Source: Amphiscolops sp. MND2022
Taxonomy: Eukaryota
Assembly (NCBI GenBank): GCA_964187785.1
Contig: OZ076410.1
Span: 53,630,001-53,694,000, forward strand
DNA length: 64,000 nucleotides
Direction: 5' to 3'
Notes under the pieces: model-generated
Told to the model about the DNA's origin: nothing
What the model saw: the letters and a program-made list of their open reading frames with translations, nothing else
Databases searched by the model: none
Shown: positions 29,725 to 53,149 of the stretch, one piece after another
Layout of the letters: the number at the start of each line of letters is the position of its first letter
Numbering within the stretch: the first letter of the stretch is position 1
Translations under genes and position numbers: made by a program

Positions 29725-30189
29725 TTATCTACCATTTGTGGCTGTTGCTGATGCTATTGATACGTAGGCACGGCCTTGAAGCACTATTTCGGTGTTTGAT
29801 TCGGTGAAATGATCTTTAAGTATTGCGTACCAGGTTGGAAGTATGTTGTTCGAACATTCGGGATCGTAAATGGGAAAACGGACTTCTGCAATGCAATTTT
29901 GATCGAGTTGGCGTATCAGATTGAATAAACATAGATGTAATACTTCATGTAACATAGGATGTTTGTTAGAAGCTCTTGTGAAAAGTAAGAAGACTTCGTT
30001 AGTCGAAGGTGCAATTGGTGATTTAGCTAGGTGGACGGCTTCTCCGATGACTGGACGGAGCTGAAAAATCTCCTCTTGTCCATATTCTCGGATTACGTAG
30101 CGCGTCATTGCCAAGTAAGACACATTGTCCGCAGGACAACACAAAACTAGCGTGCCGGTAATATGTCGGTATCGGCATAAGATATCCAA
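29725..30189 (-). CDS. Putative TARG1/OARD1-like macrodomain (154-aa open segment)
   Basis: DIL..TLVLCCPAD..REYG.EEIFQLRPVIGEAVHL..VFLLFTR..HP..LHLCLFNL..IAEVRFP..W..ILKDHF....IVL follows the recalled TARG1 secondary-structure pattern. Confidence 0.45.
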   Translation of the reverse strand: MDILCRYRHITGTLVLCCPADNVSYLAMTRYVIREYGQEEIFQLRPVIGEAVHLAKSPIAPSTNEVFLLFTRASNKHPMLHEVLHLCLFNLIRQLDQNCIAEVRFPIYDPECSNNILPTWYAILKDHFTESNTEIVLQGRAYVSIASATATNGR

Positions 30190-30875
30190 GGCAAGTAGTT
30201 TGCTCTAGTCTTGGGATGCCTGATCAACCTTTTACTTATGGTGTTGTTGGAGTTTTTGGATGATGGTGGTGCCAGGTGCTCAAAAAGAGCCCTTCCCTCC
30301 TGCCACACAGTACAGCGCAAGGGTCGGTGGGCCATACTGCTGCAAGAGCAATCATGGTCTATGGAGAGTGCTTCAAGCACAGTGATTGGCTTCTAAAGCG
30401 TGTAGGTATGCTGGTCCAAAATACGTATTTGCGCTTGTCGGCAGAAACTAATTGCCACTAATTAATGCCAATGTTGGCTGAAGGAAGTTTTCGCGATTTT
30501 TGTCCGCTAGGTGAAAGCAAAGAGTGGTGTTGAGTTGTACTAGAGTTCGCAAGTTTTCCAGGCAAATCAACAATGTGGTTGGTGATACAGGTGATACTTC
30601 ATCCAAAGAGGTGACTTGTGGCCACCAACCGTTGGTATAGGTCTCGTGACGGTGAAGCAAGGCGATATTGTTTCCATAATTGCTGTGCAGTGATGCAACA
30701 AACTATTGCCCTCTCGCCATCCTCTGGATCGATTTTTCCAAACACCATTGTGGGTGGTAGTGGAGGTGGGACAGCGGGTAATGTGAACTCGAGATCACTC
30801 CGGTCATGTCGCGTCCATTCTTTAAAACGATAGTTGAGACAATCGGAGGGAGAAGTGTAGTGCATCAATTTCAGT

Positions 30876-30881
30876 GTGGTT
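30876..30881 (+). repeat. Polinton target-site duplication, left (GTGGTT)
   Basis: Identical to 52354-52359. Confidence 0.92.
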
Positions 30882-30955
30882 AGAAGAATACAACTGCAAA
30901 TAAAACAGGTACCAATAACATTTATGAACCAGTTAACATTAAGACTATTAAACTA
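30882..30955 (+). repeat. Polinton left TIR
   Basis: AGAAGAATACAACTGCAAATAAAACAGGTACCAATAACATTTATGAACCAGT; 3 mismatches in 52 bp against the right TIR, weaker match for ~20 bp further. Confidence 0.88.
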
Positions 30956-31069
30956 TGAAAAAAAAACAAACCAAAGGTAGATTGATTGACGGAAAAAGTA
31001 AAGACGAGGACAATAATAGTTGTAGAAAAAAGTAGAAAAAAGGCTTTTTCCGGGAGGCAGGTGAAGGAG

Positions 31070-31903
31070 CTATTGCCATGGGCAGCTCCAGAAGTCTTTG
31101 TCCTGCTCACAAATTGCCTCAATGTGACGAGCAGCCTGCGTGAGTTCTACAGCAGTAAAACCTGTATTTACGCTCAGGAGACGTGGGAACTTGATCCCCA
31201 ACTTGTAAAAATGTTTCGCTTCGGAAACTTTACTTTTTCCGAAGGAAACTGAAAATTTTTTTAGTTCCTCCACAATCACTTTATCTTTTCGGGAACCTAT
31301 CCCCTCCTGTATTATCTCCAAATTTTTTTGCTATCGCAAATAGCTGAGGGGTAAACCCTTTGTCCCGCAAGCTGTCCAATTCTCGGAGATTTTTGCAGAT
31401 TCTCGCCATAGTTGAGCGCTCTGCGAAGAGGCTTTCATCCAGCGGACTAACTACTATAGGGGTCACGCTCATTACCGCTGCCGAAAGTCGAGCTCTCACT
31501 TCCGACTCCGAGAACTGCACATTTAGTTTTTTGGCAGACGAAGGACCAGCTGTAGCAGGGGAAGTTCGGGTGCTCTTCACGCCGATGGGTGAAAAGACAC
31601 CAAACTCAGACAGCAAAAAGGCAGGGGAAACTAGTTGAGGCGTTGCTGGCAATCTGTTAATGAGTGCAGGAAGGCATCCAACTCCTTGCAGAGTGGTTCG
31701 CGATGTTGTTGATACTTAAAAGCGACCCTCAAGAACCGAAAGCTGTCTATGAGACAGCAACCCCTCCAACAAAGCTGCTTTACACGAGCAAAGAGACTCA
31801 GCCTATCTTTGCGGCAACTAAACAAAAAACATGTAAACAAGAAATACGTACAATTCAACCGTACGTAGACAAAACTTGAAGAAGTTACAGAAAGCTGCAT
31901 CAA
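31070..31903 (-). pseudogene. Polinton accessory ORF fragments of unknown function
   Basis: Overlapping minus-strand ORFs 31070-31321, 31281-31652 and 31631-31903; no motif recognised. Confidence 0.3.
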
Positions 31904-31962
31904 GTAGCTGACACACTGTTATTAATTTTAAAATCACTTTTTGTACAAATCACGGGCATGTA

Positions 31963-32444
31963 TCAAAAATTAGTGCTGATGAATCGCAAAATGTCTTCTT
32001 CTGTGGCATAAGCTGGAAAAGTGGAAAAGTCTAATAAAGTGTTATTCGTTTTCAATGATTGCTTAGTCCTATAAAAAAATGAGCAGTATAAACACAGTAT
32101 ATGCCACAGAGTTGACTTTCAACGGGTTGTAACATAGTTGAAGCTGGTATATATTGATGAATTTTTTGTTTGGTTGACTTTGTACATTCGTTCACTTTGT
32201 TGTATATTACTCCAAAAAACTGCTCAAAGTCTCGACCGAAGCTGTCATACAGTAAAACATTGTCGTTTTTTGATGCTATAAGTAGCCAATGTTCCCCTGG
32301 TTGGTTGAAGGCATTCGTAATAACAATATTAAACTGATTTGGCGACAATTTAGGGAAGGTGTCTCGTGAAAAACATCCTCGGAACTTGAATTTCAGCAAC
32401 GGGTCTTTGTTGATTAGGTCAGTCCTTTGAGTGTTGTCAACCAT
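31963..32444 (-). pseudogene. Adenain-like cysteine protease (Polinton PRO), frameshifted near the C-terminus
   Basis: FRGCFSRD..P, GEHW, YDSFG and Q..ESQLCGIYC catalytic motifs; C-terminal tail (FPAYATEEDILRFISTNF) in another frame. Confidence 0.88.
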
Positions 32445-33765
32445 TGTAAATGCTCGAATTCTTGATAACTTCCCAATTGCGATCGACCAACACGACGGAA
32501 CGCCTCTCACCCAACACAATGAGACGAATTGGTTTTGAAACAGCTTTTGAAAACTTGAGCTCCAGCCCCAGTTGTGCACCAGTGAGTTCTGGACGAATTG
32601 TGTTGTCTTCTATATGATAATCGGCAGTGAGTTTGAACACGAGACAGAAATGATTGCCAAAGTTGTCTAAGGGTATTCCATTCCCTCCATGCTCAAAACC
32701 TAATGATTTGAGCGTGTTAAAGTATGAACGAACCAAATTGTCGTTCAAGTGCATCGGTGTTGCGCCAACAAGCGCTCCTTCTCGGTTCAAGCGAAGTACT
32801 TCAAGATCCATTTGTTGAAAATGGAAAAGATTTGTCTCAAAATTCCCGCTGAAATTTGTTCCGGGAACCATGGACAAAACTGTAGGGGCACGATTGAAAA
32901 TGTCATCTCGGTAAAACATTGTTACTCCAGAAGAAATGAGAAATGATTTTGAAACTGTTTCTCGAAAGTCATAATGAGCTGTTTTCCTCGAAAACATTAG
33001 TTCAATTGTCAAATAAGTTTCGTTTTTTAACTCTACCTTGTGTACTAGTAGCGAGGCACTGACAATTTGAACGGACAAATCGGCTTGTGAGTCTTTCGAA
33101 ACATCGCTGTGCATCATAACAAACTGATCTGGCGCTCGATATAGTTTGACTCGTACCTCAACTCCAGCCAGCAAGAACTTGTGGTTGTCTGCTAGGAAGC
33201 TATCAGCAAGCCGCCCATATAAACTCCACTTTGACGTAAGTATTTCCCCGAGCTTTTTACCGTTGGAAAATGCTTCATCTGACACGTCACAAGGGTTATC
33301 TTCAAACTGATATCCCTGGCAACGCAACCAGCCCTCTTTACAAGAAGCGTTATGCGACAGTTCTGCCTCGACCAATGCCTTGTAGGGATCTAAATTGTTT
33401 GGTGAAGATACAGGTGCTCCGTTCAAAGAAATTTCTACGTTCTGAAATAGACTATGCATCAAATTGTTGACAAAAACGGGTTTCTTGTCTATTTCAAAGT
33501 CTGCTTCAGTTTCTTTTCCGGTATATTTCATTTTGACATCGAGTTTCAAAAACAAATTGACCAAATCTATCACTGTGCCACCAATATCAGTCTTGGATCC
33601 CTGGAAGTCAAATTCCAACACTGTCCCGTCAGCACTGTTGGGGGTGAATACTTCTTCATGATATCCTCGCTGAAAGTCGACTAGTATGTCGGATGCCCCA
33701 AATAAAGACAAACCGGAGTGCATTCCCGGTGTCGGTGGTTCTGAGTAAACAAATGTCTCGGGCAT
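32437..33765 (-). CDS. Polinton major capsid protein (double jelly-roll, PY), 442 aa, open ORF
   Basis: LSLF..DILVDF, VLEFDF, NNLMHSLFQNVEISLNG, PYKALVE, FLLAGVEVRVKLYR and FKLTAD; size and position are typical. Confidence 0.88.
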   Translation of the reverse strand: MPETFVYSEPPTPGMHSGLSLFGASDILVDFQRGYHEEVFTPNSADGTVLEFDFQGSKTDIGGTVIDLVNLFLKLDVKMKYTGKETEADFEIDKKPVFVNNLMHSLFQNVEISLNGAPVSSPNNLDPYKALVEAELSHNASCKEGWLRCQGYQFEDNPCDVSDEAFSNGKKLGEILTSKWSLYGRLADSFLADNHKFLLAGVEVRVKLYRAPDQFVMMHSDVSKDSQADLSVQIVSASLLVHKVELKNETYLTIELMFSRKTAHYDFRETVSKSFLISSGVTMFYRDDIFNRAPTVLSMVPGTNFSGNFETNLFHFQQMDLEVLRLNREGALVGATPMHLNDNLVRSYFNTLKSLGFEHGGNGIPLDNFGNHFCLVFKLTADYHIEDNTIRPELTGAQLGLELKFSKAVSKPIRLIVLGERRSVVLVDRNWEVIKNSSIYNG

Positions 33766-33965
33766 TTTGTAAAATGAAACACGATAAACTACTAATAGGA
33801 AAAAAGATTAAAGGCAATTGGTCAGCAAAGTAAATGTTTCAAGTGCATCAAATTGTTTCTGTATAGGGTTAATTACGCGTGAGCAACAATGGATGCAAAA
33901 AAGTGTTGACGACTTCTTTTTTTTTCTTGTGGCGTTTACCAGCTGGTTCCTGGGAGCGTTTCTTC

Positions 33966-34419
33966 TTAAATGCTCTCTTCTATTTTTTTCGAAGGTGTGC
34001 GTTTTCGAAATTGACGATTTGACTTATTTGATTTTGCAAACGATGGTCTTTTTTTCTTTGATGTCTTTTTTCTCTTGTTTTTTGACACAGCTTTCCTCTT
34101 TGTCCTTCCCCGACCACCTCGAATCTGCTGACGAATGGTCTTTTTGACGGCATTTTTCATGGCAGTTTTCGGCTTGTTTGTCCCATCTAAAATATTGAGG
34201 ACTTCAGGTGCAGCTTGCGTCAGAAACGATTTGGCCACGAAGGCCATACCGTTTGACCATTGGTATCACAAAACCTCTAAGACCGGCTTTAATTGCTGCA
34301 CCTATGCCACTGCCACACTGTCGATATGGTGATCCTTGGAAATAATTCACATTCGTGGGATGTACTCGGTTGTGATTGGGAAGGGAACCTGATGATGTTC
34401 GAGACATTGGGTTCGACAA
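33966..34419 (-). pseudogene. Basic putative DNA-condensing core protein, frameshifted
   Basis: FQGSPYRQCGSGIG (QxGxG motif) followed by a very K/R-rich tail; lies between penton and MCP. Confidence 0.6.
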
Positions 34420-34590
34420 GGATTATAGGGGAGGCAACTGATATTTTCTTTTAGGAGTTGCTCTAAAAACTCGAAAAGAGACCGAGAATTCCACATACGG
34501 CTGATTTGGGGCAAACGATTTGGGAAAAATGGAAAGCGATAATTCGAATAGAGTAAAAAAATTGATACTCTAAAAACATCAAAAGAAAGC

Positions 34591-35414
34591 TCAGTTTTTC
34601 CGACAAAAGGAAAGTGTGACAGTCGTGGGGCCGACACCAACGAAAGGCAACAAATCTCCTGTGTCGGTGCGCAAATCAATGAGTATGTCAATCAGATTCT
34701 TTCTCGAAACATTTTTGAATGTTGGGTTGGGGAAGGACACAAAGGAGCAGGCGCCATACCCGAAGGAGCCTCCAGGTTTCTCTTCCTCCTCCTTTGGTGG
34801 CATTTGTTGTGGGTTGAATAGAGGAAAAGTGTTTAGGAGTGGAGCTCGTCTGTTGCCAACAAATTGTTGCTCAATGAAGTCCCCGTACACGTATACTTGA
34901 TGCCAATGATGAATGTCTACAGAAAAGTATGATGGCATGTCATGATAGAGGGGTGGATGCTTCCAAGGATTTGTAACTTGCTTACATCCGAGAATGTGAA
35001 AGAGATCGGGGTACTTGGCAGCAAACCTGGCGGTATCTGGATAATTCAGCATGAATTTGCCCTCAAGGTCGATTTTCCAACTGAAATGTTTTTTTAACTG
35101 TTCCTTATTCCACACATCCCGTGCATAATGAATGCCTCTGTTCATCTCTTCAATGATCTGTTCAATGTCTGTATAGACGCCTCTCCCAACCTTGCAATTT
35201 TTCATCCACTTTTTTCCACCCACATGGTAATAAAAATTAAAAGTAGACTCTCTCACGTTGTATATTTTTCGGGGATAGGTAATCTCTGTCAATCTGACTT
35301 CCCATTTTCCGTCCAGTTCAATTGTTGTCGGGTTCTGAAAGATGCCAATGTATTCGTGGGATACACGTCTGAGGACGCGTTAGATGATAGAGTAACAGTG
35401 AAGTTGTCGGTCAT
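34591..35414 (-). pseudogene. Polinton minor capsid protein (penton, PX), frameshifted near the N-terminus
   Basis: FTVTLSSNASSDVYPTNTLASFRT; EITYP; VYVYGDFIEQQFVGNRRAPLL; IDLRTDTGDLLPF..VTLSF. Confidence 0.85.
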
Positions 35415-35489
35415 TGTCTTCAAACTTTTTTTAGTTGAAACGGTGATTGAAAATTGACTTTGGGTAGGCAAATAGCATGTACTTGGTGA

Positions 35490-36450
35490 TTACTGAATTG
35501 TTAAGGTTATCGTATTCACTTTCAAAAAGATTAGAACAAAATTTTTTGATGACGCGACTGACTGCGATCTTGTAAATAATTGAACTGAGTAAGCTCGGGC
35601 TGATAGATTCGGCCTAAGATAGGTTCATTGTCAGAATCAAGCAGTTTGTATGTGACGGGACCCTTCTTGTACTGATGTACCTTGACAATTTTGAATACTT
35701 CACTCGTGTTTTGTTGCTTTTATTCTTTGCCGAATGGCATAACTTTGAGCGCGATACGAACACGATCCCCTACCTTGAAACGTTCAGCAGCCTGGTTGGT
35801 CTTCGTTTCTAACTTGGCTGTTTGCAGAGCGAGCAACTTTGGAACGTGTCGTTGTGTAACTTGACTCGCTGTTATGCCAATGGATCGGTTATACCTGTTA
35901 TTAACCAATTCAACAAACTTTTGCAAAAATAAGATGTATCTGAAAGTTCGACGCGCTTCGAAAAACTTGTGTAGGAGTGACTTTAGGGTTCGTATGTATC
36001 TTTCAGCCATGCAACTTTTGGTCTCACTGTAACTGTGATAAATTTCTATAGCATTGTTTGAACGAATTTTTGGGAATTCAACTTGAAATTCTTTGCCTTG
36101 ATCAACCCAAATTTTGATTGGAAAATCAAGTTTGTCAAAATTGATCATTTTTTTCAGTGCAGAAGTGGCAGCATTTGATGTCTTGTCTTTCAAGGGTTGC
36201 ACTTGATTTTTTCGAGAGAGAAAATCAACTGCAAGAAGCAAGTATTTGTAACCATCGTTGAACTTTTGCAGTTTTTCCATGTAAGCAACTTCAAGGGACC
36301 AAATATGATTGATTCCGAGGGCTATAACATGAGCCGCTGAAAACGTCGGCGTGAAGGTTTGAATTTTGTAAAAATTGGTGAGCTTTGTAGGTAAGCCAAA
36401 ACTTTTTTCTCGGTAGGTCGCTCGCTTTCACCAATTCTTAACACTACCGA
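35490..36450 (-). pseudogene. Polinton retroviral-like (rve) integrase, frameshifted
   Basis: YKYLLLAVDFLSR, IWVDQGKEF, SCMAERYIRTLK, NNRYNRSIG and FKVGDRVRI; core ORF 35720-36280. Confidence 0.9.
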
Positions 36451-37236
36451 AAGCAGCAGGATTTGAAAGGGAAGTGTAAATACCATGAAGTTTTCTATAT
36501 TCCGTTTCCGATAATGGTCGGTCATCTGCTTTTGATGGTGTCATCAGGGATGTTGCAATCTTTGTTGATGCAAGTTTCTGTTTATAATGTGACTCAAACA
36601 ATTTATGTTCACAATGAGGTTTCTGGCAAGCTGAACAGAATTGTGACTTTCCGCGGGGAACAGTATATTGAGAACTAAAAAATAACTTTCAGGAACTCTC
36701 TTCTGATAAATTTGCAAGTCTCGGCGAAATGTTCAAAAGTCTAAAGTTGTGTCCGTAGAACGACCGGTATACTCCTCAACTGAGCCGCTGGCTGACGGTA
36801 AGTTGAACGAAGATGTCGACGTGTTGAAGGTGATTTCTTCACACTGGATAAGTAGGTTCAAAACTCCTTGTATCCTGGTTTTTCGAGTCGACATAGCGGT
36901 TTTCTCGTCAATCGCTCGATGCCGTTTTTTCACAGGCAACCCTTGAACTTCAACAGAGTTTGCCACGTCCTGCAGCCAAGTTGTTGCAGCTGGATTGTCT
37001 GTAGTGCTACGTGATGACGCAATTTCTTTCTCAATTAATTTTGCTGGGTTGCTCACTGTTTTCGAGGGATTCTCTTCTAAACTCAATGCAGCATCGTCAT
37101 CACGCGCTGTTGATTGCTCCGATTTGCAATTATACTGGTTAAAAGGTTTTTCATAAATTGACAAAGGTATGAGGACAAATTCTTCCATTGACCGTTTAAG
37201 GAATTGAGGAAATGGTGATGGAGGACGCTCAATCAA
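36450..37236 (-). pseudogene. Polinton hypothetical protein between ATPase and integrase
   Basis: ORF 36733-37236 (MEEFVLIPLSIY from 37188), apparently continuing in another frame. Confidence 0.4.
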
Positions 37237-38277
37237 ACTTGGTCAACCACACAAAAAGAACACTTGCCATATAAAACTGAAGTAGAGGAAACAGAAGATA
37301 TTGGAATTACAGAATAACTCTCTTTCAACGCGTCAGGCAAGTTAGCGTGATCATTCAATTGCTCAGATCTGGCATACTGGGAGACAAGTTTTTGAGGAAG
37401 GAGAAAGGTTGTTGGCTCAACAACTGAAATCGAAGTTCGGTTATCTCTGTTTTCCAGAGCTACTGATTTGGTTACTTTGCAGTTCTTCGTGATGCAGCTA
37501 AAATGTTTGGGCGAATTCTTGTATTTAGACAATTTCTCATCAAAGTTACAGATTCTGGTCGCGGAACGTAATGAATCGTGGCAAGTTGCACTGAGATCAA
37601 TTAGTAAATGTCCATGCGTCACTGAAGTAGCGCGCTGATAAGCTGCTTGCGAGAAATTGGAATCGGCAAACTCTAGTTCTGAACAAAGAATTTTCAACTG
37701 CCTGTCAATTCTGGGTGATTTCAAAAAGACGAGATGTGTTGTGTTTTTGTCAGCAGTGACGCAATAACGACCCTGGTGATAGAGATTGTTTAATGAAAAT
37801 TACACTGACAACTTTGTGCCGACCAGCAGTTGCCAAATTAGCGAAAGATGAACTTTCTAAAACTTCATCACAAGAGTCATCAAAAATTGCTGAATTTTGT
37901 CGTTGTTTTCAACAGTTCTGAAATCGCTTACACTAGACTGATGATTCAAAAGTTCTTCAATGAGTGAGTCAATGTCAACCGAAGAGTAGCGTGACTTTGC
38001 CTGTTTTGAATTCAATGGATTTTGGGTTTCGTTTTTGTTTTGATGCTCTTTGCTTTTCTGAAAAGATGCTGACACTTTACAGTTGCAAAAAAATCTGGCC
38101 GGGAACTTCTTTCTGAAATTGATCATAAATCGGTTGCCAATAACGATAGTAATAAACACTTTTCTTGAACGGTCGTCTGAAAATGCCACCGTCTTCAGAG
38201 TTGCGTGTCAGTAAATCAAAAAGTAGGCGTGTTTTACCAGATCCACCCGAGCCACAAATGCACATGAAAACTCTCAC
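37233..38277 (-). pseudogene. A32/FtsK-like genome packaging ATPase, at least 2 frameshifts
   Basis: Walker A GSGGSGKT, Walker B AIFDDS, TAGRH, NTTHLVFLKSPR and HGHLLIDL. Confidence 0.9.
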
Positions 38278-38461
38278 TTGACTTTTGACTTGACTTTTCT
38301 CACTTTCATATAACTTTATTCATTTCATTTGAGGGGTTTGTAGAAGGAATCTGCGTTGGGCAAAAAGTATGCTATACAGGTTGATAGAATCATGAAATAG
38401 GCTGTATTCTCCTCGCAACTTAATGACTTCACGAAAAGCAGCCTAGCAACAGAAAAAATAA

Positions 38462-40431
38462 CTAATATGAAAACGAGAATAATTTGTGAGAAAAATATAT
38501 GAGAAACTCACGACCAACGATGTAATTGAAAAGAACCCACTGTTGATCGGTAGTTGCTTGTTTTGAATGCGAACCTTCAGTGTAGGTGGGATGAGATGTG
38601 ATCACTTCAACTAGAGTACTATCAGCAAAATCAAGATCTTTTGAATGTGATTGTATTTCCGATTCTGATAGTTCCAACCGTTTTGACTGTCTATTGATAT
38701 CGGCCGTTTTACAAGAAGTCGCAGAAAGATTTTTGTCGTAAATGTTTTCAGGCAATCTTGGAGGCGGTAATGAATAACCTAATGTTTAGCTCAAGAAGCT
38801 CTTATATAAAGACGTGTCTAGACACAATTGTTGGTCGGATTCCTCGCAGCCGGGGCTTTGCTTATATTCGTAAAAAACTTAATTTCAGTTAACAAAAGGT
38901 GTCCAAAATAACAATAACAGACAGCTGCGTGAGGTAGAGAATTTGAAATAATGGAGGCAGCTGTTTAACTACTTTGTTTCGGAAGATGGTGCCACTACCT
39001 CTGCTGCGCTCACAAAACTGCTCGTCCCCTGTACTCTCTTCGGATTTATGTTCTAGCACCCTAACATTGTTCACGGTTGTAAGCTGCAAGTCAGTGTTAG
39101 CATCTATGGAATTCGAATGACTAAGCGTTGCACAATCACCAGTAACTTTTAGAGAGTCTGATGTGGAAGGACAAAACATGTCATCCAACATCTGAAAAAG
39201 ATATGGTTAAAAAAATTGTCGCAAGCTTCATTCAATTTTATGCTTGTTTATTCTCGGCAAAGAATACGATGTTCTGGAGAAAAATGTTAGTTTGACACAA
39301 AGAGAAGCATTATAAAAGAAGCATGGACAACATCAAACATCATTTTTTTCTTTTTACAAAGATTGTTTCCTAAGTATTTTGATCAAGGAGTTGAGCCCTT
39401 TCTCCTTCGCCTGTAGCATAAACTCGTTCAGGAGGGTTGGCGCTATTTGGAGAGAGTCGCGTTGTAGAGAGGTTAATTTCTCTTTCTCTTTCGTCCTCGT
39501 CGTTTTCATACTCGCTCATTATTTCATCTTGATATTGAATCGGAAGGTGAGCAGGATCATCACTTTGTTCATCAAGTATGGACGGGAGAGCAAGGGTACT
39601 GTTGCTTGAAACCTCAGGTACAACTGCTGACATTGTCGGAGACCTGCTACCGTTGGTCGTTGAAACATTCGAGTTGTCAAGGCTCTGAGTGGGTTAGCGC
39701 CGAGTGTCAAAAAAATTGGTCATTGAAGTGTTTAGGTTATTTTGAGGTTGATTAGCATTTCCCAAGTGTTGATGCGAAGATGTAGCCCTTTCACTTTGTT
39801 GTTCTGCATATTGTCTTTGAATTTCTTGACTAGGCCAATTTCTGGGCTGAGTTGAACCAGGTACGTTATTCCAAACTGACGATTGGTTCATATAGGGTAA
39901 AAAAAGTGAGATGCGGAGTACTCAGTCTTGCATACGGGCGACCAACGTACCTAGTGTATTTGGGGTTTGTTTGATGAAAGACTGCATGACCACCGGACGG
40001 CAACGTAAACTTCGGAAGGTTTCCTGTAGAAGCAGTGTTTAAACTGGTTTTATAGTTTCCATTGTAAAAACTGGATGTCAAAGATTGCGAAGCTGTATGA
40101 TTTTGAATCGCCAATCCGTATCGCATCCTGCCGCCATCTGTCTGGGAGTTAGTATAATCTCTGAAAGGGAGATGTTCAGAGCAATGGGTGTACTTTGCAC
40201 CAAACAGCAGTATTCTTCCCAACTTATCTCAATACTATCTGCTCGCCTTGACCCAATCAATCCAGCACTACTGCATAAACTCTTTGTGGCATACCCTCTA
40301 CTGATTGTAACTCTGGGATACGACGTAGACTGCGTCGAATTATTCAAGTTGTTTTGATCGAGAGGCTGATTGGTGTTGGGAAAGTGAAATCCTAGTTGCA
40401 AGGTATTCGACAATAGTAAGAAGGCCGTCAA
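38462..40431 (-). pseudogene. Block of Polinton accessory ORF fragments of unknown function
   Basis: Seven short minus-strand ORFs, S/T/N/Q-rich; no motif recognised. Confidence 0.3.
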
Positions 40432-40518
40432 TTCCTCATTAAAGGCTTTCTCTTCGAGCCAATTTTACTTGAGTAGAGACTCACGGTATCTGAAAGCAGC
40501 ATAATGTCTACTTTTCAA

Positions 40519-41090
40519 TCAAAGAAAAAATATGAAACCAGTTATATGTCCCAACCAAAAACAAGCGTGTGTATAGCCTGGTCCTTTTTTGTGGACCTGA
40601 TACAAATGACCATGCGCATCGTGGAATACAGTGTGTAATTTTAAAATAGGGAATAACGGAGCCATCAAGGAGTGAGTTCGAACTGTTATCCCAGGTCCGA
40701 TAATCCCGCCCAAGGAGCTCTATGTGAGAATTCATTGCATTTGAGCAACTTGTTGAAAGCACACGAGGGGCAGATATTAATACATGAACATCTGTTAGTT
40801 TCAACCAGAAGCACGCTCACAAAAAGTATGTGATTAAAATACAACAGGGAACATACATACATGCCGGGAACAGCCACGTCGAGACGTAGGTTGAACATTG
40901 GAGAAATCAATCCTGAATCAGTTTCCGATTCAACGGTTTTCGCGGTTAATTCTTTGAGCACGTCGTTGTTGTGGTTAGTACAATGTTTATGGAGTTTTTT
41001 GACAAGTTCGTAAATTGATTCAATTTTCAAAAAAATTGAGCAGAACATACTGCATGTGACTGAATTTAAAAAGCAAACGACGATCCACAA
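40519..41090 (-). pseudogene. Phospholipase A2-like protein (parvoviral/adintoviral PLA2-type), frameshifted
   Basis: GGIIGPG (Ca-loop-like), LHTVFHDAHG (HD catalytic pair) and GPGY; Cys-rich N-terminal part in ORF 40686-41090. Confidence 0.5.
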
Positions 41091-41300
41091 AATTTGAAAA
41101 AAATTTAACTGTTCATCTCCAGGATGAGCTTAACATAAAAAGTAAAAACACTATTGTAAGTAAAACTATTCAAACTCAAGAGAACCGAAAACGAGACAAG
41201 ATATTCAATTATCTAACTTATTTATCTAAACAAGACGACAAGAAAACAAGACGACGAGAACGAATAATATAAAGCATGAAGTATGACAAAGTATAATTTT

Positions 41301-42148
41301 TCACCGACGTTCGTTTTCCCAGATGCAATGGAGTTCCCAGGTCACTTTTGGCCTCATTTTCGGTGCCCGTTTCGGGAAAAATTCTCGGTTTACGTAGTCG
41401 GTTGACTCCTTTTTCCAATCGTCGGCCATTTGTTTCTCGAAAATATTTCCATGCAACAGCGTGAAATTGTCGTTGGTACAGCCCCAGAAACTGCTCCAAA
41501 TTGAATAAGGACACCAAACATTGCGTTGTTGTACGTGAAATCCCCCAAATTCCTCTTTGTTTCTCAAAGTAGTCTGAAAGATCTGTTGAATTTTGCGGAC
41601 GGTGCTCTCCAATTCCCAATTCACCGCTGTCTCTCTGACCAAAAAGTGCGAGCCTCTTTTACTGAGTTGACATCCCTCCGCAATTACTCCACTCTTTTGC
41701 TTGTCTGAAGAAGTTTGTTGTTCACGATTATCGAGCTCGTATTTCAATATAGAATCGGAATCGCCCAGTTTTGTTGAACTTAACTCTTCATCGCATGGGT
41801 TTGCTTTCAGTTCCAGTTTAATTTTCTTGCTACTGTTACCTGGTTCAAGGTGTGACTCCTTACAGATTCCATCGTTTTTCTGTAGTTGTTCTGGAGGCAA
41901 AAACACTAGTATATGTAAATTATTTTCTGTGGCCGTGCTGTCTCGAGGATCTGGTAGAATGTAACACCTTCCTGAAGGAAAACGACCACTCTGCAAATAC
42001 GGTGACAAATCTTGAACACATTGAACACCGTCGTCCTTGAAACCACATTGTTTGTTGCAACAGAAGAGATGACCGCCAATAATAAAACCAGCACCCACAT
42101 CAGTCGAGAGTTTACGGATGCTGTTACGCACAAATAGGCATTGGGCAA
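41301..42148 (-). CDS. Polinton hypothetical protein (276-aa open segment)
   Basis: Long ORF directly downstream of pPolB; Cys-containing N-terminus; no family recognised. Confidence 0.45.
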
Positions 42149-42471
42149 CTGCTTTTTTCTCGAATTTTTGATTTGGATAGAAAACGAAATGACTGTATAG
42201 TAATGACGTTTTGCGTCTAAACTCTATGGGCGTTTTCTGAAAGCAAGCAACAATTAGTTAGGAAAGGACTATCTATGCATTTGTAATGTTTTGAAAAAGC
42301 ACCTGTTTGCTACCTTCGAACAACAAAAAAAATAAATTGGTAAAGAACTCTACTGAAAAGAAACGTAGATAAACAAATAAATATACTTTCGTCAAAGGCT
42401 ACTAAAATAAACAAAAGGCGCCGATACACCAGTTTTTTGTCGAGCACACGCTTATTGCTCGTCACACGAGC

Positions 42472-45400
42472 CTACTTTTCACAAAAGCGAGTTTTTATTT
42501 GACCAGTTTTCACACATCTACTCAAGGATGTGAAAGGACTTCTTAGCTCATGTGTTTCTCCAAGAATTAGTTTTTTGAAAGTGTCTGGGATGAAGGTTTT
42601 CTCCGTCGCCCTGTTTAGGGTGACACCTTTCACTTTGAAGACGTTGTATTCGAGGCCTGAGAAAACATTGTGTCCCGACAAGCAGTAAAATTTGGGACCG
42701 GCACTCCAGATTTTGTCGATTAAAACATCACCGGGAAGCTCATTCGTCATTTCACCCATAGCTGATCCCAAATGTATGTCCTGTACTCCATCAGATTTGT
42801 CATGCACGTACATTATGCTATCTGTGTCACAGTAGAGAATGTTTTTAGGATTTCGAACACATTGCATGTTTTCGTAAAGAATCACCCTTGCATGAGCTGT
42901 TGTGAACGCGGCCAGAATGACGTTGGTTTTTCTTGGCGAATCTGCGGCATCGTCAAGCAGCTGATTTTGCAGAAGCATCAAGTCGTCACCGACCAAAGTT
43001 GCATCAGTCACACGCTTGGTCCTGGATGTGAAGTACTCAACAACTTCACGGTAGTTGTTGGCGTATCTAGTTTTGGGCATGTTGTCTCTCATTCCCAAAT
43101 AACCCCAAAAACTATTCAATAAAATCTTGGCAATGAATCGGAGGCCTTCGTTTTTTTCAATACTGTTAGGGTCCAGCGTGATACCTTCTTGCGCCCGTAT
43201 GTCATCCAAATATTTCTTTTTGTGCAAGCACAGTGTTTCAACTAATCCAGTCTCTGTTTACCAACATCCTTCAGAGGGCCAAACAGATGCCTCCATCTTG
43301 ATTTTGAGGAAAGTGTCAATGTAATCTTTGAAGAGACTGGTGGATCGTTTGCACCGGGACCAGCTCCAAACTTCTGCCACATCAAGAACGCGATAACCTG
43401 TTTCAATGGCTTTTTTCAGTTCCGGAGTTGCAAATATACCCCAAAAACCTCGTTCTCTCGGTTTGAAATGATTACAGAGGTTAGAATTCAACTCCAAGCT
43501 TCGGTGATCTAAGACGTTGCTTCTCTCTTCAACACACCGCCTGCAAAGAGGAAAGAAAAGTTTTGATTGATACTTAAACGGTAAAATTGGTAGGTGGAGA
43601 TCAGAAGGAGGTAATACTTCGCACTTAATGAGGCCGAAGAAGTCCTCATTGAGAATTTTGTTTTCCACTATTATGTATACATATTGGGAAAATCTCAGAG
43701 CGGAAAAGTCCGTAACTGTTGTCTCCACTGCTTCATCTGTAATTTTTGCATCAGTTTCTTGTTGGTTTCTCGAAAAACGTAGAATTGTCTCGCCTTGTCC
43801 AAGGAACAGTATTTCGGTAACTTCATTTTTGTTGACAGGACACGAAGGCGAGTTTGGACCATCAGGTACTTGTGATGTTGCTTCAGCTTTTCCTCGATAA
43901 GTGACAAGGTGTCGTTGCTCAATTTCAATTAACACTTGATCAGGGTGACCAACTGGATACATGCACCGCGAGTTGACGTAAGGGTACAGGGAGCAGACGT
44001 CGACATAGCAGACAGTTTGTGATTCAGTTTGCCTTGACCAAAAATTCACAAAATCTTCCGTTCTTCCACCAACGAAGGCATCCGTAGGCTGTAGAGGCCT
44101 GTACCGTCTAGTTTCCGAGGAGCATTTAATCAACTGAAACAAATTCGTTGGTGTGTATAAGTCTCTTTCGTCCAATGTGTTTGATTTGGTAGAGCTGCTG
44201 ATCCTCTCCATCAACGTAGTGGGCAATGTGAAGTTCGTTGACTCCAACGACTCCGAAAATCCTGCTGGGCATGCATCATCAAATGCCTTCGCTTGAAGAA
44301 GTTGGTTCATTTCACACTCCCATATATGAAAGACACTTTGAACGTAGAACTCGAATTGGTCGGTTGTTGTGAATACTTTCTCAGTCTGGGTCTGTAGATG
44401 CAGCCAATTGAGTCGGTCCACAACAGTTGTTGTATATAAATCATGCATTGACATACCATTGCGTTTTTTGTTCATCTCAATCCGGTCAGATTAGCAAGTT
44501 GGACATCCATGATAATAGCACCCAAAAAATTCCAAAACAATGGAAGTATGTACCATTTTCTTGTGATTTTTTGAAGTTATGGCATTGTCAGAGTTTGTGT
44601 TGCTTCTCCTCAGAAGCAAAAGCCCATCCACTTTGAAGGAACCTAGTGTCTGTTCCTTTCCTCTGCCTTTTTTAGAGCCACCTCCGAATTTGTAAAGTCT
44701 CACTTCACAAAAAATCTGATTGGTTTCAAGAGTCTCCCAAGCAATTTTTTCGATCCAAGTCATCCATAAAGCAGCAGGAACTGAAGTTAGCTCATTTCCA
44801 GTGTAACCGTGATTCGGCAAAATCGCAATTGAGTTTTTTGGCATGAAAAGTTGCCTGTAGATGAAGTTACAGGCAGAAGCAGCGGTACATGCAACTTTGA
44901 AAGGATCTATTCCTCCGCAAGTAAAATTAATCATCCTGCGATATTCTAAAAACGTTCCTTCAAAAGCTTGACATCCGATTCACAGTAAGATATCAAGTCT
45001 TGTTCAAAATTGTAAGTTTTGGAGTTTTCTTTGTAGTATCGTTTCTGTTGTGTGTGCCATTCCAAAAATTTTGTGACAGTTTGTCCGCCTTTCATTGAGT
45101 TGATTGCGTACAGACATGCTGGAGGAAACTGCCCATGTTTGAAAGCAAAGTCATCGTCAACTGTATTACTGTGTGCCAGTGATGAGCTTGCAGTCGAGTT
45201 GCAAAAAAAGAGTTGCAACGACTACAATCTCTAGTTATAATTTGGCGGAGACTGCAATTTACTCATTTTACACAGTTTTGAAAGCTGTGAATTTTACCAC
45301 TGGAATCGGGATATAGCGCTTCTGAGGAAGTTAGATAGTGGGGGAAATACCCTTTCTTCAGTTCTCTTAGGTTGAATGTTGAAGTGAACTTGGATAAAGG

Positions 45401-47280
45401 GATAGGTATGAACAGATAGGAGTCAATAAACCTCTTGTTGCCCACTCGCATTGAAACCATTTTGTTACCTCTCAAGAGAAACTTGGGAATATACTTGTGC
45501 TGTTTGTATAACCATTCTAGAATTGGTAAAAAATCGAATCCACTTCCAAAATGAGCAATGAACCATTCCGTTTTTCGCACTCTTTCATGAGTACCAAATA
45601 CCGCTTGGCAAAATTTGCTGACACATTCGTATCCAACATACACAGTGTGTTCTCCAATCAAAGACTCATCAAGCAGCAAAATTGGTTTATGAACTCCTCG
45701 ATTGCCACAACTTTGATCTGTTTCAATATCGAAGGTCCAAATATCACGGTCGGGAGGTTTTTGATTTGAACGTCTAGCAAGGGAATCATGAACCTCTCAA
45801 TCATGTTTTACGGTGAGTTTTGCTTTTTTTGCCCCGATTGAGTTTCCATCCCCAACACTACTCTCCAGACCATCATTCTAACCAATCGCGTCCCTATGAA
45901 TGAATTGAAGGCTTGGACTGTCATTGTTAGTGTTTCCTTCGTACGCCATATCTGTCTGACTGCACTCTAATTTGGTCTTACAGTGCTGTTGAACGAAGCA
46001 CCGATGAATAGGAACCACTGCTCCACTGTTCTGCTTTCGGTCTGGAACGGGTAGTATTCGGAACATATGTCGCAGCGCTTTTTTGAACAAAAGTGATTGG
46101 AAAAAGCCCGTTTGGGAACAGTGTTGTTGCACAAGGGACACTGGGTGTACAAATGACAAACACCCGATCTGATATGACACTGCAAACAATTTAGACTGCG
46201 TAATTTCAAATGAAATCGATCACATTGGAATAAAACAGTCCCATTAACAAGACTTGCTGAGGTATTGATAAAACTTGTTCTGTTTAAACAGTCAGATTCT
46301 TTACAAATCATGCAACCACTAGCGGAACATAAGTGTTTGATTGTCGAAAAAGCACGGTGACAGCTGTAGCAGTAATGTCGAGCGTCAAACAAGCCCCTCA
46401 TTGATGTAATAACGTCCACATGGCAATTTGTGGCGTCATAAAGAAGATCAATGTGTTTTTCTGCAGTGATAATGTAGCACATCAGGAAAGTACCCATGAA
46501 GTTGCTGTCGTATACTGATATACAAAAAGGTCGTAGTGAAGATGTAGTGGCAAGATATTCGAGGTCTCGAAGAACCAGAGGTTTTGCAGGACCCAGGGCC
46601 TCCTCTGTTGATTCCGATCTCACTGAGACTGAAGTTGTGTTGTTCCTTGATAGCGAGACAGAAAAATTTATTGAAGACACAATGTTCTTCTCAGCATTCA
46701 TTCTCTGCATGAAAAGTTGCATCTCTCTAGTTTGCACGGAAGCGCGATCAAGGTGTAGGTTTTTCTTTCTGGTAGACTTTGATGATGACCTTTCTCCAAC
46801 TTTGAGAGCTATTGCAAGAGCTTTCAATAGACATTCGTTTTGTTCACTTTTAATCACAATCACAGATTTTTTTTGTTTGGTGAATTGCTTGATGTCGGGA
46901 ACCATTCTGTTTTGTATTCCACCTATCCGCTTTCCACCCATTGTAGGTAGGGATACGCTGAGAACATTGACTTTAATGTTGTTACTTATATCAAACGATT
47001 CATTCGAATTCACCACCCTATCTATTTCTTTCAGCACAATGTCTGCATCGAAATCTTCTGCAGGCGAAAAAGGAATATGAATGGGGTAATTCGAAGTGGG
47101 AGCGTTCAGAACCAATCGAATTCTGTGATCATGACCCGGAAGATCCTCTTGAGTTTCAGAAATCAGTGTGTTTATCATATGGTTGAATATTTCCCGTAAC
47201 TTGTCCAAAACGGTCTCAATTTTTGTGAAGTAAACTTCGTAATATCTACTAGCAGCATGCAACAGACTTCTCTGCGGCAT
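42472..47280 (-). pseudogene. polB: Protein-primed family B DNA polymerase (pPolB), split over at least 6 ORFs
   Basis: Exo I TFDIET, Exo II AHFGSGFD, Exo III YCESDV; motif A YVDVCSLYP, motif B KILLNSFWG, motif C YCDTDS; GPKFY and KVKG; VSR-like VDG..EFFGCYYHGCPTC insert; N-terminal OTU-like and Zn-finger region. Confidence 0.95.
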
Positions 47281-47624
47281 GCGATTAAACTATAAAAAAT
47301 TCTCTGGACTGAAAGCGGCCATTTATTAGCTGAAAAAGGAACAGGATGTTGATTGAGAGCAAGGTCCCAGAACGGTATTGTTGAGAAAAATACAAAACGA
47401 CAAGATGAATAACATGTAAAAAATTGAAATCAAACTACACAGTCACACAGTCACACAATAAATTTATACTTATTTGAGTAATAAAGTTAATATTATATGC
47501 AAAAAGTTGGTGAAACCATAATACAAAACGCGCTCGTTGGACTTGCGTTATTCATTTTCAATTTATCCGCTTCCTTCACAATCACCATAGTATTTGAACT
47601 AGTTCATGAAGACATCATCATTCT

Positions 47625-48260
47625 CTAACTCGTTGTCGTCTCGACAGCTTGGCCCATATCCATCTGGGTTTGTACGCGGTAGCCAACGTCGCACCCGCTC
47701 TCGAAACGTTTGTCTTCGTTCCCATGGTTGTGAATGTCTGCTTGGTGCTGAGAAACAATAGTGTGTTCGTCTCCACTATTGACCACCTTTGATGACGATG
47801 CTGCCTTGACAGTCCTTCTTTTTGCAGTCTGTGAGCTTGTTACAGGCCTGATCCCAATGGCTGCATTTTTAACAGTGTTCAAAAGCGATCGTTTTCTTTC
47901 CGACAAAAGATGCGACAGAACCGCTTGTGTCATCATTGTCTTTAACACAACACAACACAAAGCACTTTCGAGAAACCGATTGAATTCTTGAGGCACATTC
48001 TGACCAAATCCAGCAACCTCTACTGCGGCCTTGTCGCCCAAGCCTAAGCAAGTCGCAAAGCAGGTCAGTTCATCAATTGTGAAGGAGAAGTGACTTTGAC
48101 GGTTCCACTGACCACTATCAAAGTCTGGTTTGCATAGACCTAGACCAATGTATGTTGAAGGACCAGAACTGCTGGCATTGTCATATGTTTTGATACCTAC
48201 TCGGACCCAGCGATTGTGACTCATAGAAATGTCCCACCACTTGTCATGCGTACTTTCATC
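47625..48260 (-). CDS. Polinton ORF with possible PC4-like ssDNA-binding domain
   Basis: WDISMSHNRWVRV..TYIGLGLCK..GQWNRQSHFSFTIDELTCF fits a beta-beta-beta-beta-alpha PC4-like pattern. Confidence 0.35.
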   Translation of the reverse strand, partial: DESTHDKWWDISMSHNRWVRVGIKTYDNASSSGPSTYIGLGLCKPDFDSGQWNRQSHFSFTIDELTCFATCLGLGDKAAVEVAGFGQNVPQEFNRFLESALCCVVLKTMMTQAVLSHLLSERKRSLLNTVKNAAIGIRPVTSSQTAKRRTVKAASSSKVVNSGDEHTIVSQHQADIHNHGNEDKRFESGCDVGYRVQTQMDMGQAVETTTS

Positions 48261-48945
48261 TGCCTCCGGCGATATTTTCTATGAAGAGACCAGACATTTG
48301 TTGTCCGTGCCCGAGAAAGCAGACTTTCGCTCACGCTTTTGTTTCCGAACTAGTTGACAGCCAGTTCATTGTCATTTTTCAACTTCGATATCTGAAAAGT
48401 TGGAAACAACCTATTAGATACTATATGCTGGTTGTTTTATAGACGATTTCACCAGATTACAAGATTTTAAGTTCTGAAGTCTTCGATTCGCCTCTATATT
48501 TTTTTTGTGAACGCGTTCAGTCCTTCAACAAAGCTTACTGTTCAAACTTTTTGAATGGAAAAAGTGAGTATGTAGTGTTGACAAGGATCATAGTAAAAAA
48601 AGCAAAGTGAAAGACCACAAGAGCTACAAAGGAAACGAAGTTGACTTTTCTTTGCAACAAAAAAGAAATGTGGATGAAAAAAAATGAATTGATCCGGCTA
48701 TATTTCATAATGGAGCAGCAGTTATGAGCAGACTTCATCACAGCTAATTCAAACGATTTATTCAAACTAGTTCATGCGCAAAAAATGGTTTCTCGATTGT
48801 CAGTTTAGAAGCTTGAACAAGCGCTTTCCTTGCTTTCAACATCGGTTCTCTCTCGCTCTTCCTGTCCTCGGCAAATTCAAAATAGTAACCATCCAAAAGT
48901 TGTTGGGTGAATTCGTCTTCTCCAGTGAATCTGCTAAACACGTCG

Positions 48946-49640
48946 TCAGCTTGCTCTTGGTAATTTGAGATATTGGCAACATGTCTCTTTTAAAGTTTTA
49001 CGCTGGTTGAATACTTCCAGAAGCATCAAAGCTTCGCAAGCTTTGCCATAGTCGACTTTAACTGTGTACCACTGATCTCCTGCAATCGGCAGCACGTAGT
49101 CAAACATTCTGTTGTTGCAACCGAAGCCTAAAAGTGCTTGGTCCAGATCGATCGCCAGGATGAATTCCAAAACTCCCCTGTTGTTACCCCTCCGAACCAA
49201 GCATCATCAAGTTGATCCATCACTTCTTCAATTGGTAAAAACTTCACAGAGAAATCGTTCTTCGTCACAACATGTTGGGAAATATTCCACATGTAACGGA
49301 GGCCCGGCGAATTTGGAGACATTGTTTCCAAACCAAATGACAGCCGACTGTCTCCGAGAACAATTGCCGGATGATTCTCTGTTTTGATGAGAACTTTGAA
49401 CACACGAACACCTTTATTTAAATCTTGCGTAGACATTAAGTTGAATGTTCTAGCGGTACCTTCGTAATACATTTCATCGTCATCGTCAGAATCAAGCCTG
49501 TTGAATAAATTTTCGAAGTCAGCACGAACTTCCGATTGGTCAACCCCAACAACTGTGTTTTGGAAACCTCTTTTGTTATAAATATCCAGCCTTGCCGAAG
49601 TCTTCCATTCTACAGGCTCAGTGCGAGCAGTTGTACTCAA
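48946..49640 (-). pseudogene. First Polinton ORF downstream of the regulatory arrays, unknown function, frameshifted
   Basis: ORFs 49128-49640 and 48946-49200 overlap in different frames. Confidence 0.4.
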
Positions 49641-49908
49641 AAAACCATCGAAGCGACTGCGTTTTCTGATCTCCGCTTCTGTTTCAATGTCGGGCTATCT
49701 TAACAGGCGCACTCTGGCTTCACACCCAAGGAAAACGTCGCTGTCGTAATATGGAAAAACTCTGACGTGATGACACAAATTGACACAGCCTCGCTTAGAG
49801 TAATCATATAGATCTTGCTGGACAACTCGGTTGGAACTAAATTTTGCTACCTAAACGTCAAAGCTCTTATGTCACTTTCATAACAACTATAGAGGTGTTC
49901 AACAGGGA

Positions 49909-50485
49909 GCAGTAGGGTTGGTCAAAAAAGATTTTAGGTGTCAAAAACGTGTTTTTTCAACTTTTCAACGTTTTTATGCAATTTTGAGACAAAAAAAATT
50001 TTGACCAAAAAAATGTTTCCGTACCCTCGCATAACCCCTCACAGGGTGTACCGTATGCAGTAGGGTTGGGCAACAAAAATTTTTGGTGTCAAAAACGTGT
50101 TTGTTCAACTTTTTCAACGTTTTTATGCAATTTTGAGACAAAAAAAATTTTTGACCAAAAAAATTTTTCCGGACTATCACATCATCCCTCACAGGGGGTA
50201 CCCTATGAAGTAGGGTGGGGGAAAACAATTTGGCGTCAAAAACGTGTTTTTTTCAATTTTTTCAACGTTTTTATGCAATTTTGATACAAAAAAATTTTTG
50301 AACAAAAACATTTTTCCGGACCCTCACATCACCCCTCACATGGGGTACCCTATGCAGTAGGGTTGGGCAAAAAAAATTTTTGGAGTCAAAAACGTGTTTT
50401 TTCAACTTTTTCAACGTTTTTATGCAATTTTGAGACAAAAATTTTTGATCAAACCCTATGCAGTAGGGTTGGGCAAAAAAAGGTG
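49909..50485. repeat. ~148-bp tandem repeat, ~4 units
   Basis: Unit anchor G(C/A)AGTAGGGT at 49909, 50057, 50207, 50354 and 50460 (last unit shortened). Confidence 0.92.
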
Positions 50486-50549
50486 ATGGGTTATTCCGTA
50501 TGATACAGAAATTTTAAGTGGGATTTTTTGTTAGAAAATCTAGCTACAA

Positions 50550-51117
50550 TTTTTCCCGCGCCGCGGGGGAAAAATTCAGTTGTTTGTAAGAAAGTTCAGG
50601 CTCAAAACTTTCCCGCGCGGCGCGGGAAAAGCTCAGTTGGGGTTGTGTGTTACAAAATCAAGGCACAAACATTTTCACGCGCGGCGCGGGAAATATTTAG
50701 ATGACTGTTTGTTATAAGTCTAGGCAGAAACTTTTTCCCGCGCGGCAAGGGAAATGTTTAGATGATTGTTTGTTATAAATCTAGGCAGAAATTTTTTCCC
50801 GCGCGGCGCGGGAAATCTTTAGTTGATTGTTTGTTAAAATTCTAGGCAGAAAATTTTTCCCGCGCGGCGCGGGAAATATTTAGATGATTGTTTGTTATAA
50901 ATCTAGGCAGAAACTTTTTTCCGCGCGGCGCGGAAAATATTTAGTTGATTGTTTGTTAATATTCTAGGCAGAAAAATTTTCCCGCGCGGCGCGGGTAATT
51001 CGAATGAAGGGATGCTTTCCCGCGCGGCGCGGGAAATTAAAATGAAGAGCTCTTCATTTTAATTTCCCGCGCCGCGCGGGAAAATGGTGCGACCTTTTCC
51101 CGCGCGGCGCGGGAAAT
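50550..51117. repeat. Array of palindromic TTTCCCGCGCGGCGCGGGAAA motifs, including ~61-bp tandem units
   Basis: 11 copies counted, six of them spaced ~61 bp apart; includes a perfect 68-bp palindrome at 51016-51083. Confidence 0.92.
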
Positions 51118-51133
51118 CCAGTTAAGAACGTTT

Positions 51134-51502
51134 TTAACTTATATTTCTATTAATATTGTACTCAACAGCGTGTCTGTTTTTCCAGACAAATATTAGTTTG
51201 AACGTTGTAAAATTAAGAAACTTACTACTCGGTGCAACCTTCTGGATATCGATTTCACAGTTTAGTTTTGAAAAAGTGCTTATGGAATGTCGCTCAGATC
51301 TTATATTAACCGTCATTTTTACGACAAATCTTACCTCGGTCAGAGAAGCTAGATCATTTTCATCGGGGTACACTGTCTCCTCTGGTGGCAGAACTGTTGC
51401 CAGATTCAGAATGGCCGAGTCTGATGTTGCAGAATCAATAACGCTGCAAAAAGTATTTTTGTATTTCAATACGTCTATTAGGCTCAATCGAGGAAAAAAC
51501 AA
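51134..51502 (-). CDS. Hypothetical 122-aa ORF between the two motif arrays
   Basis: Open ORF with a (GA)n tract upstream near 51865-51882; no motif recognised. Confidence 0.25.
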   Translation of the reverse strand: MFFPRLSLIDVLKYKNTFCSVIDSATSDSAILNLATVLPPEETVYPDENDLASLTEVRFVVKMTVNIRSERHSISTFSKLNCEIDIQKVAPSSKFLNFTTFKLIFVWKNRHAVEYNINRNIS

Positions 51503-52035
51503 AAAAATCCCAAAGTATTTGAAGAAACCAAACTCACATCGATAGCTCAGGGTCGTCTTCCGTTCGAGGTGTATTTAAAAGGCTCAAATCCAAGCTGCTG
51601 AGGGAGTTGCTGGTGCTGCTGATATCGTTGTTGAGAGACATTGTCTAATGTGGAATTTCAACTTAGATGTGCTACAATTTTGTTGATTAAGTTACAAAAA
51701 AATGCGAGTCAATTTCTGAACTATGTGTTTTCTAATTTTTTGAAACTCTAATCAACAACAATTTGCAGTTTATCTCGGTTGAAATCCCACTGTAGTTTTT
51801 GATCGAGAAATTGAGGTAGAGTTGGAGAGAAGAAAGAGAGAATCAAGTCAACTACTGGAGACAAAAGAGAGAGAGAGAGAGAAAGATTGTGGTAAAGAGA
51901 AAAGCGGTGAGTTCGAGCAAAGTGAGAGTGCGTTTAAACGTTAGCAAGAAAGGTGAAGTACTGAGCTGTTGTAGCGTTTGATTACTCTATGTAGTTCGTA
52001 GCTCAAATTCAATTAGTTGATAAGAAACGACAAAA

Positions 52036-52228
52036 TTTTTCCCGCACGGCGCGGAAAAATATTTGCTAGTGCGGATAAATTCCCGCGCGGCGCGGGAATT
52101 TGCTGTTCGGGCAAACAATTTTCCGCGCCGCGCAGGAAATTGTTGTTCGTGTGTATTATTGATTCATTTTGTTACTCATAAAAGCCATTATGCCGTAGTA
52201 GTACACATCCCCGCGCCGCGCTGGAAAT
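52036..52228. repeat. Second cluster of the same palindromic motif (4 degenerate copies)
   Basis: Copies at ~52036, ~52079, ~52119 and ~52209. Confidence 0.85.
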
Positions 52229-52279
52229 TACTATAATAGTTTGTCTTTGAAGTTCCAATTTGTAAATGAACCAGAAATG

Positions 52280-52353
52280 AAATTGTTTATTAGCCTTTTA
52301 TACTGGTTCATAAATGTTATTAGTACCTGGTTTATTCGCAGTTGTATTCTTCT
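52280..52353 (-). repeat. Polinton right TIR
   Basis: Ends ...GCAGTTGTATTCTTCT and is followed by the TSD GTGGTT. Confidence 0.88.
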
Positions 52354-52359
52354 GTGGTT
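52354..52359 (+). repeat. Polinton target-site duplication, right (GTGGTT)
   Basis: Identical to 30876-30881. Confidence 0.92.
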
Positions 52360-53149
52360 TCTAGTGGTGGTACCACTCCTCGTTCTTTGCTGTCGTACGT
52401 TTTCTCCACGGTGATTACAACGTGGTGCACTAAGGGAGAAACGTATTTCTTCTCCATTGAATTGCTAGGATTGCATATCGCGGGTGGCTGTGTCCAGGTG
52501 CTCGCGTAGTTAAGGGTTCGCAGGCAGGGTCGTTCACTCCCCGGGCCAATCGATGGTCCGGTGTTTCGCTCATGACTAGATTGACACAACTGCAGTCACG
52601 GGAACCGCAGGTTCCACACCTGTATCGTGGTGCTCTGTTTCTTCTCAACTGATAACGTTGTGTTTGCGAACGGGTTGCCTGTTCAGTATTTTGCTGGGTT
52701 GATGATTGGCTCTCTGGAATGTTGAGTAAGTTCATTGCTCGTTCCAGAGTTCCTGCGTGACGGAGCTCTGGTCCTGGTCCTGGTTCGAGTTCTCGGGCCT
52801 CTTCTTGACCTGGCTGCTGGTCCTCTCCAGGTCGCGGTGGTCTTACTTTAGGAATTGCTACTTCCCCTTTTGCGGCCTGGTGGCTGGCCTCTTGGTCGAC
52901 CTCTTCTGTGTGTTGCTCTGTCTGGTGTCGGTGACTGGGTTGGTATCAGGGACTTGGTCATCCGCGTTAATATCTTCCTGTAGTTCGTTCAGGGGGCTGT
53001 GGGTCTTTAGTGCTCCCAAGTTGGGAACTGAATAGTGGAAGTTACTGAGAGTATCGGCTAGGGATGGGGAAACTTGTCTGGTTAGTTCTAACTCGAACAA
53101 TGCCTATGACAGCTGTTCCGGCAGGAAAGAGTCTCGCGAGATGTCAGAC

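Follow-up and report, generated by a model that had tools for sequence, protein, structure and literature searches.

The window, by which we mean the whole 64,000-nucleotide stretch of Amphiscolops sp. DNA analysed here (G000:C2:53630001-53694000; positions given without a prefix count from its first letter), contains a decayed Polinton/Maverick lying inside a decayed Ty3/Gypsy retrotransposon. The Polinton proper occupies 30882–52353 (21,472 bp) and is collinear with a sibling copy at G000:C1:83732143-83755231 (~94% identity). It has AG...CT ends, opening with AGAAGAATAC and closing with GTATTCTTCT, and its 52-nt terminal inverted repeats (left, 30882–30933, plus strand; right, 52302–52353, minus strand) match at 49 positions, with three mismatches. 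The insert is flanked by two plus-strand copies of a 6-bp target-site duplication, GTGGTT, at 30876–30881 and 52354–52359, which is single copy in uninterrupted relatives; the probability that two random hexamers from the window would be identical by chance is 0.0004. The ends and both GTGGTT copies confirm the proposal, made earlier in a sequence-only reading, of a Polinton with exact limits. The interval given there, 30876..52359, places the junctions correctly but counts in both copies of the duplication, which lie outside the element itself.

The hallmark genes of a Polinton were found on the minus strand, bearing out its identity through profile matches in the window copy (DNA_pol_B_2, rve) or in the 94% identical sibling (Pox_A32, rve, Peptidase_C5). 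The gene for the protein-primed family B polymerase (pPolB; 42407–47289) is broken and matches DNA_pol_B_2 in three pieces (E values of 4e-10 and 4e-8 in the window) and phrog_1907 (E 4e-20). The rve integrase gene (35537–36523) carries four breaks (rve E 3.5e-6; sibling 2.8e-11), and the A32-type packaging ATPase gene (37305–38368) is broken by four frameshifts (sibling Pox_A32 E 1.5e-10). An adenovirus-type protease gene with one frameshift (31978–32513) is identified by its sibling ORF (Peptidase_C5 E 3e-4; 20.9 bits, slightly below the cut-off of 21.3), the window copy itself giving no Peptidase_C5 match. The ORF at 32440–33798 (445 aa) is open, with no breaks and 81% identity to intact P0034, and is probably the double-jelly-roll major capsid gene: the Capsid_N profile matched eight of 20 homologues weakly, with a best E of 0.004, and a PDB sequence search with this candidate gave no match. 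Beside it, a putative penton or minor capsid gene with one frameshift (34597–35417) is suggested by position and size and is kept in a related Polinton family; it had no profile match. Between the two lies a small Arg/Lys-rich ORF (33969–34386, minus strand; 76–78% in the related family), possibly encoding a DNA-condensing core protein. Gene order is the same in the related family.

Two further minus-strand ORFs, at 47628–48278 and 48798–49844, are kept in the related family at 42% and 27%, respectively, and had no Pfam or PHROGs match; the first may be PC4-like. The right arm (49909–52230) is non-coding and holds tandem arrays (148 bp × 3.6 and 61 bp × 6.4) and 15 copies of a GC-rich palindrome, possibly as a replication or binding region. 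The palindrome occurs in 4–11 copies per tile in sibling Polintons and is absent from the related family, while the 148-bp array reaches ~23 copies in the C1 sibling.

The available text of two accounts of animal Polintons/Mavericks, or polintoviruses (Barreat and Katzourakis 2021, PMC8097293; Krupovic et al. 2014, PMC4028283), defines Mavericks by such a gene set together with inverted ends and 6-bp duplications. The window element resembles those described there in its pPolB, rve integrase, packaging ATPase, adenoviral-type protease and probable capsid genes, in its AG...CT inverted ends and 6-bp duplication, and in being decayed, as are most genomic copies. It differs from vertebrate Polintons, as far as these are described, in having short, 52-nt inverted ends that start with AGAAGAATAC rather than (AG)3 or (AGT)2, and from known Polintons in having all matched genes on one strand, several unnamed ORFs, and the palindrome and tandem arrays of the right arm.

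The host element lies on the minus strand and has the gag-PR-RT-RNaseH-IN order of Ty3/Gypsy. Its 5′ LTR is a 464-bp remnant with both ends missing (63275–63738; 85% identical to the 3′ LTR), the outer end of which did not turn up within the following 46 kb. The decayed gag-protease-RT-RNaseH-integrase region and the first part of the pol tail follow at 52356–60244. Beyond the Polinton come the broken end of the pol tail (29752–30880, corresponding to residues 1587–1966 of the public protein P0008), with two TARG1-like macrodomains (one probable, the other well supported), a decayed accessory ORF (25712–29487) and a whole 3′ LTR (24467–25171; TG...CA, 705 bp). Young relatives of this Gypsy have LTR pairs 0.4% apart. 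A third, partial LTR-like copy of the same Gypsy LTR family lies at 16915–17189 (75%).

In intact relatives the accessory region is one ORF of ~1,430 aa with motifs that appear SGNH-like by eye (a conserved D-S and a later N-x-x-D-H). It had no significant Pfam match and no relevant PDB match; Lipase_GDSL_2 matched weakly (E 0.16) in 2 of 16 members, in the first of these outside the motif region. The GDSL/SGNH-bearing ORF3 of bdelloid LTR retrotransposons is likewise an extra ORF after pol, as described in the available part of PMC5408684, but the ORF here is distinguished from it by its ~1,430 aa and by having no obvious final catalytic His. We regard the SGNH/GDSL link as a lead only. It had been suggested that the nesting is what exposes the Gypsy accessory genes; this is not needed, since many young uninterrupted relatives show the genes directly.

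Both flanks of the Polinton belong to this one Gypsy. A search of the 1.07 Gb source genome with the left flank gave 41 places (best 40 of 651 candidates scored), from which 19 relatives were fetched. The left and right flanks, searched apart, abut in these relatives with the overlap predicted by a duplication. Of the 19 relatives tried, 12 could be mapped at both anchors, and in each of these the anchor-to-anchor distance was the expected 37 nt. The right-hand anchor had no DNA-level alignment in the remaining seven, of which six belong to a younger, more distant subfamily; at the site these six read E-T-T-L-K-A-M, within ORFs 410 to >894 codons long. The empty site in uninterrupted relatives holds one copy of the hexamer and mostly has this same reading. 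Against the intact pol P0008 (1,980 aa; RT, RNase H, integrase), residue 1587 is both where the right half stops and where the left half starts. The earlier claims that DNA 21 kb apart forms one element, and that uninterrupted relatives should be collinear across the rejoined junction, were therefore upheld by the exact spacing in every mappable relative and by the halves meeting at one codon. That the two elements move as one composite unit, or that the junctions reflect an assembly join, is scarcely credible: a Polinton end is missing at this site in all 19 Gypsy relatives, each sibling Polinton has its own separate flanks, a mis-join would not be expected to give a perfect duplication at both ends, and the Polinton and Gypsy parts are both decayed.

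The insertion site lies ~500 codons past the integrase core and ~40 codons ahead of the first macrodomain fold, and the hexamer falls in the same codon phase of the minus-strand ORF at either side. The proposal that excision recovers the broken frame accordingly stands at the junction, where the phase matches, but only locally. Of the two ORFs named in support of it, 52332–52589 follows the pol frame only from ~52463 to the junction (~36 codons) and 30599–30868 only from the junction to ~30632 (~83 codons). Counted against intact references of other subfamilies (52–81% identical, so that some breaks may be alignment effects), frameshifts and stops number 45 over 6.31 kb of host coding sequence, or 7.1 per kb, as against 19 over 8.83 kb, or 2.2 per kb, in the Polinton. 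Intact core ORFs are absent from the Polinton, and of the genes counted the capsid gene alone is unbroken. The insertion is one lesion among dozens in the host Gypsy, and probably a late one.

The order of events, Gypsy first, agrees with the sequence-only reading: the Gypsy is older than the insertion because the Polinton, as the guest, carries the duplication. For timing, the host LTR pair differs by a K2P distance of 0.154 over 463 nt (~15%), a date that uses a pair whose right member lacks both ends and with which a recombinant host may be compatible. The Polinton and its nearest sibling differ by 0.046–0.053 over ~18.6 kb, an upper bound on twice the Polinton's age. Host and Polinton thus stand at ~3 to 1 by both break density (~3.3 times) and divergence. 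On these values the Polinton would have arrived when roughly two thirds of the host copy's age had passed. About two thirds of the host breaks would then be older, and we infer that most of them predate the insertion. Because the host has more breaks per kb and its LTR divergence exceeds that of the Polinton, the Gypsy was probably already dead when the Polinton arrived.

A different sequence of events, in which the Polinton knocked out a still-intact Gypsy copy and the insertion was the killing lesion, draws on the position of the site within the pol ORF, with matched codon phase on either side, and on an LTR date that is not secured by the Gypsy's own target duplication. We consider it improbable given the ~3.3-fold excess of breaks per kb in the host, its ~3-fold greater divergence per copy, and the identity of just 79–82% shown by the best relatives among the 40 candidates scored in each search.

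Polintons are common in this genome, as a capsid query gave 99 matches across several families, and both element types abound in it. Searching with the left Polinton end gave 15 matches, which yielded five other two-ended copies (4 to 31 kb) and two single ends. All five two-ended siblings have a perfect 6-bp duplication, each different, and one copy of the related family has one as well. The seven duplicated hexamers from the window, the siblings and the related family share no consensus. One sibling (L061-L062, G000:C3:86816001-86836000) contains a second, unrelated Polinton with its own pPolB, rve and A32 ATPase, and a similar case is suggested for the C5 sibling (L068-L069). In the sibling at G000:C12:56765058-56769044 (L059), the terminal 800 bp and ~430 bp of flank are tandemly duplicated. 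Dozens of open, nearly identical capsid genes mark a distant Polinton family (34–35% capsid identity) as young.

Some flanks could hint that this Polinton family favours retrotransposons, or this Gypsy family, as targets, as in the Ngaro-virophage affinity in Cafeteria: one further sibling end adjoins the RT region of a different Gypsy (26% match to RT), and several sibling flanks match repeats. Yet only one of 13 flank stretches (seven siblings, a small sample) matched any of four Gypsy proteins, none matched the pol tail of this Gypsy family, and the hexamers lack a shared consensus, which makes such a preference improbable. We are instead highly confident that an exactly bounded Polinton, flanked by its 6-bp duplication, inserted, likely by its own rve integrase and with no site preference, into the post-integrase tail of a Ty3/Gypsy pol, long after that Gypsy likely died. 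The integrase would have made a staggered 6-bp cut, with gap filling then producing the GTGGTT duplication, a route established for Mavericks in the available text of PMC8097293. Both elements would now be inert.

Nesting of this kind is ordinary, and the Polinton is a new copy of a known element type. In the available text on plant LTR-in-LTR nests (PMC6911290), nesting is common in repeat-rich genomes, and there too the order is fixed by an older element being interrupted by a younger one that has its own duplication. Ngaro retrotransposons inside virophages, as far as described in the available part of PMC8547959, similarly place a younger element inside an older one in fixed order; in the window the roles are the other way round, with a DNA virus-like guest in a retrotransposon host, and there is no sign of targeting. 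The nest itself is of little weight: it cleanly marks, for two repeat families, which came first and how their ages compare. Elsewhere in the window, a 291-codon ORF (12917–13792, minus strand) matches rhodopsin-family GPCRs (7tm_1, E 6.5e-7) and is likely a host gene. Nested inverted-repeat arms at 1199–4414 and 17904–18466 are probably small DNA transposons or MITEs.

The pol of the window Gypsy family is predicted to end in a domain that folds like TARG1, an ADP-ribose eraser. The predicted macro fold of this last pol domain is closest to that of TARG1/C6orf130/OARD1 (PDB 4j5q, 2lgr); the macrodomains in the tail are probably in tandem. TK and GCGLD are the catalytic Lys and Asp motifs of TARG1-type macrodomains. 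They are replaced by TR and YDPER in the window lineage and kept in L085, L098, L099 and L100. Searched genome-wide, the Pfam Macro profile matched six times, and three of these matches fall within long retrotransposon ORFs. The macrodomain of another Gypsy lineage matched human TARG1 with E 2.5e-26, both motifs kept, and aligned by profile with the last domain of the window family (probability 68%, E 5e-5).

This canonical TARG1-like domain occurs in at least 150 places in the genome (all 150 of those scored, from 1,441 candidates; canonical loci L085:1-2049, L087 and L090-L103 of G000). Among 15 of these places, picked with long ORFs favoured, the domain lies after the integrase in 12, between RNase H and integrase in one (L098) and before RT in one (L100), with one unassigned. 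Their RTs fall into three groups on long branches, distant from one another as well as from the window family, and two copies in the first group likewise are without the motifs.

Our literature searches turned up no account of macrodomains in LTR retrotransposons, although supplements may list such fusions. The available text of a review of accessory domains (PMC6338049) has no macrodomain passage, and in that of a chromatin-domain survey (10.1101/2021.11.30.470311) we found no macrodomain-transposon link. The nearest precedents are the GDSL ORFs of rotifer Gypsy elements (PMC5408684, available part) and the macro-domain ORFs of fish epsilon-like endogenous retroviruses (PMC4977317, available part, citing Basta et al. 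2009). In the fish retroviruses the macrodomain is described as an additional ORF, whereas here it is fused onto a Ty3/Gypsy gag-pol as its last part. TARG1 takes ADP-ribose off protein and off DNA and RNA ends, according to the available text of PMC11088682.

We tentatively suggest, as a possibility we hold to be well short of even, that Gypsy elements of this genome have repeatedly captured TARG1-type macrodomains (in at least four lineages and three places in pol, some with the motifs and some probably non-catalytic) as an undescribed ADP-ribose module. Intact forms would remove ADP-ribose marks set by the host on the RNA, cDNA ends or proteins of the element. In its altered tandem form, which occupies the position of the chromodomain in chromoviruses, the module would recognise or protect these marks, and it could direct integration. 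ADP-ribose-erasing macrodomains are counter-defence modules of RNA viruses. The Polinton, if the module exists as proposed, would only have split a dead copy beside it. The macrodomain-bearing Gypsy families are a by-product that could matter more than the nesting: intact and degenerate natural variants are available for comparison in vitro, and a recurrence of macrodomains in Gypsy pol would suggest that ADP-ribosylation serves as a defence against retrotransposons.
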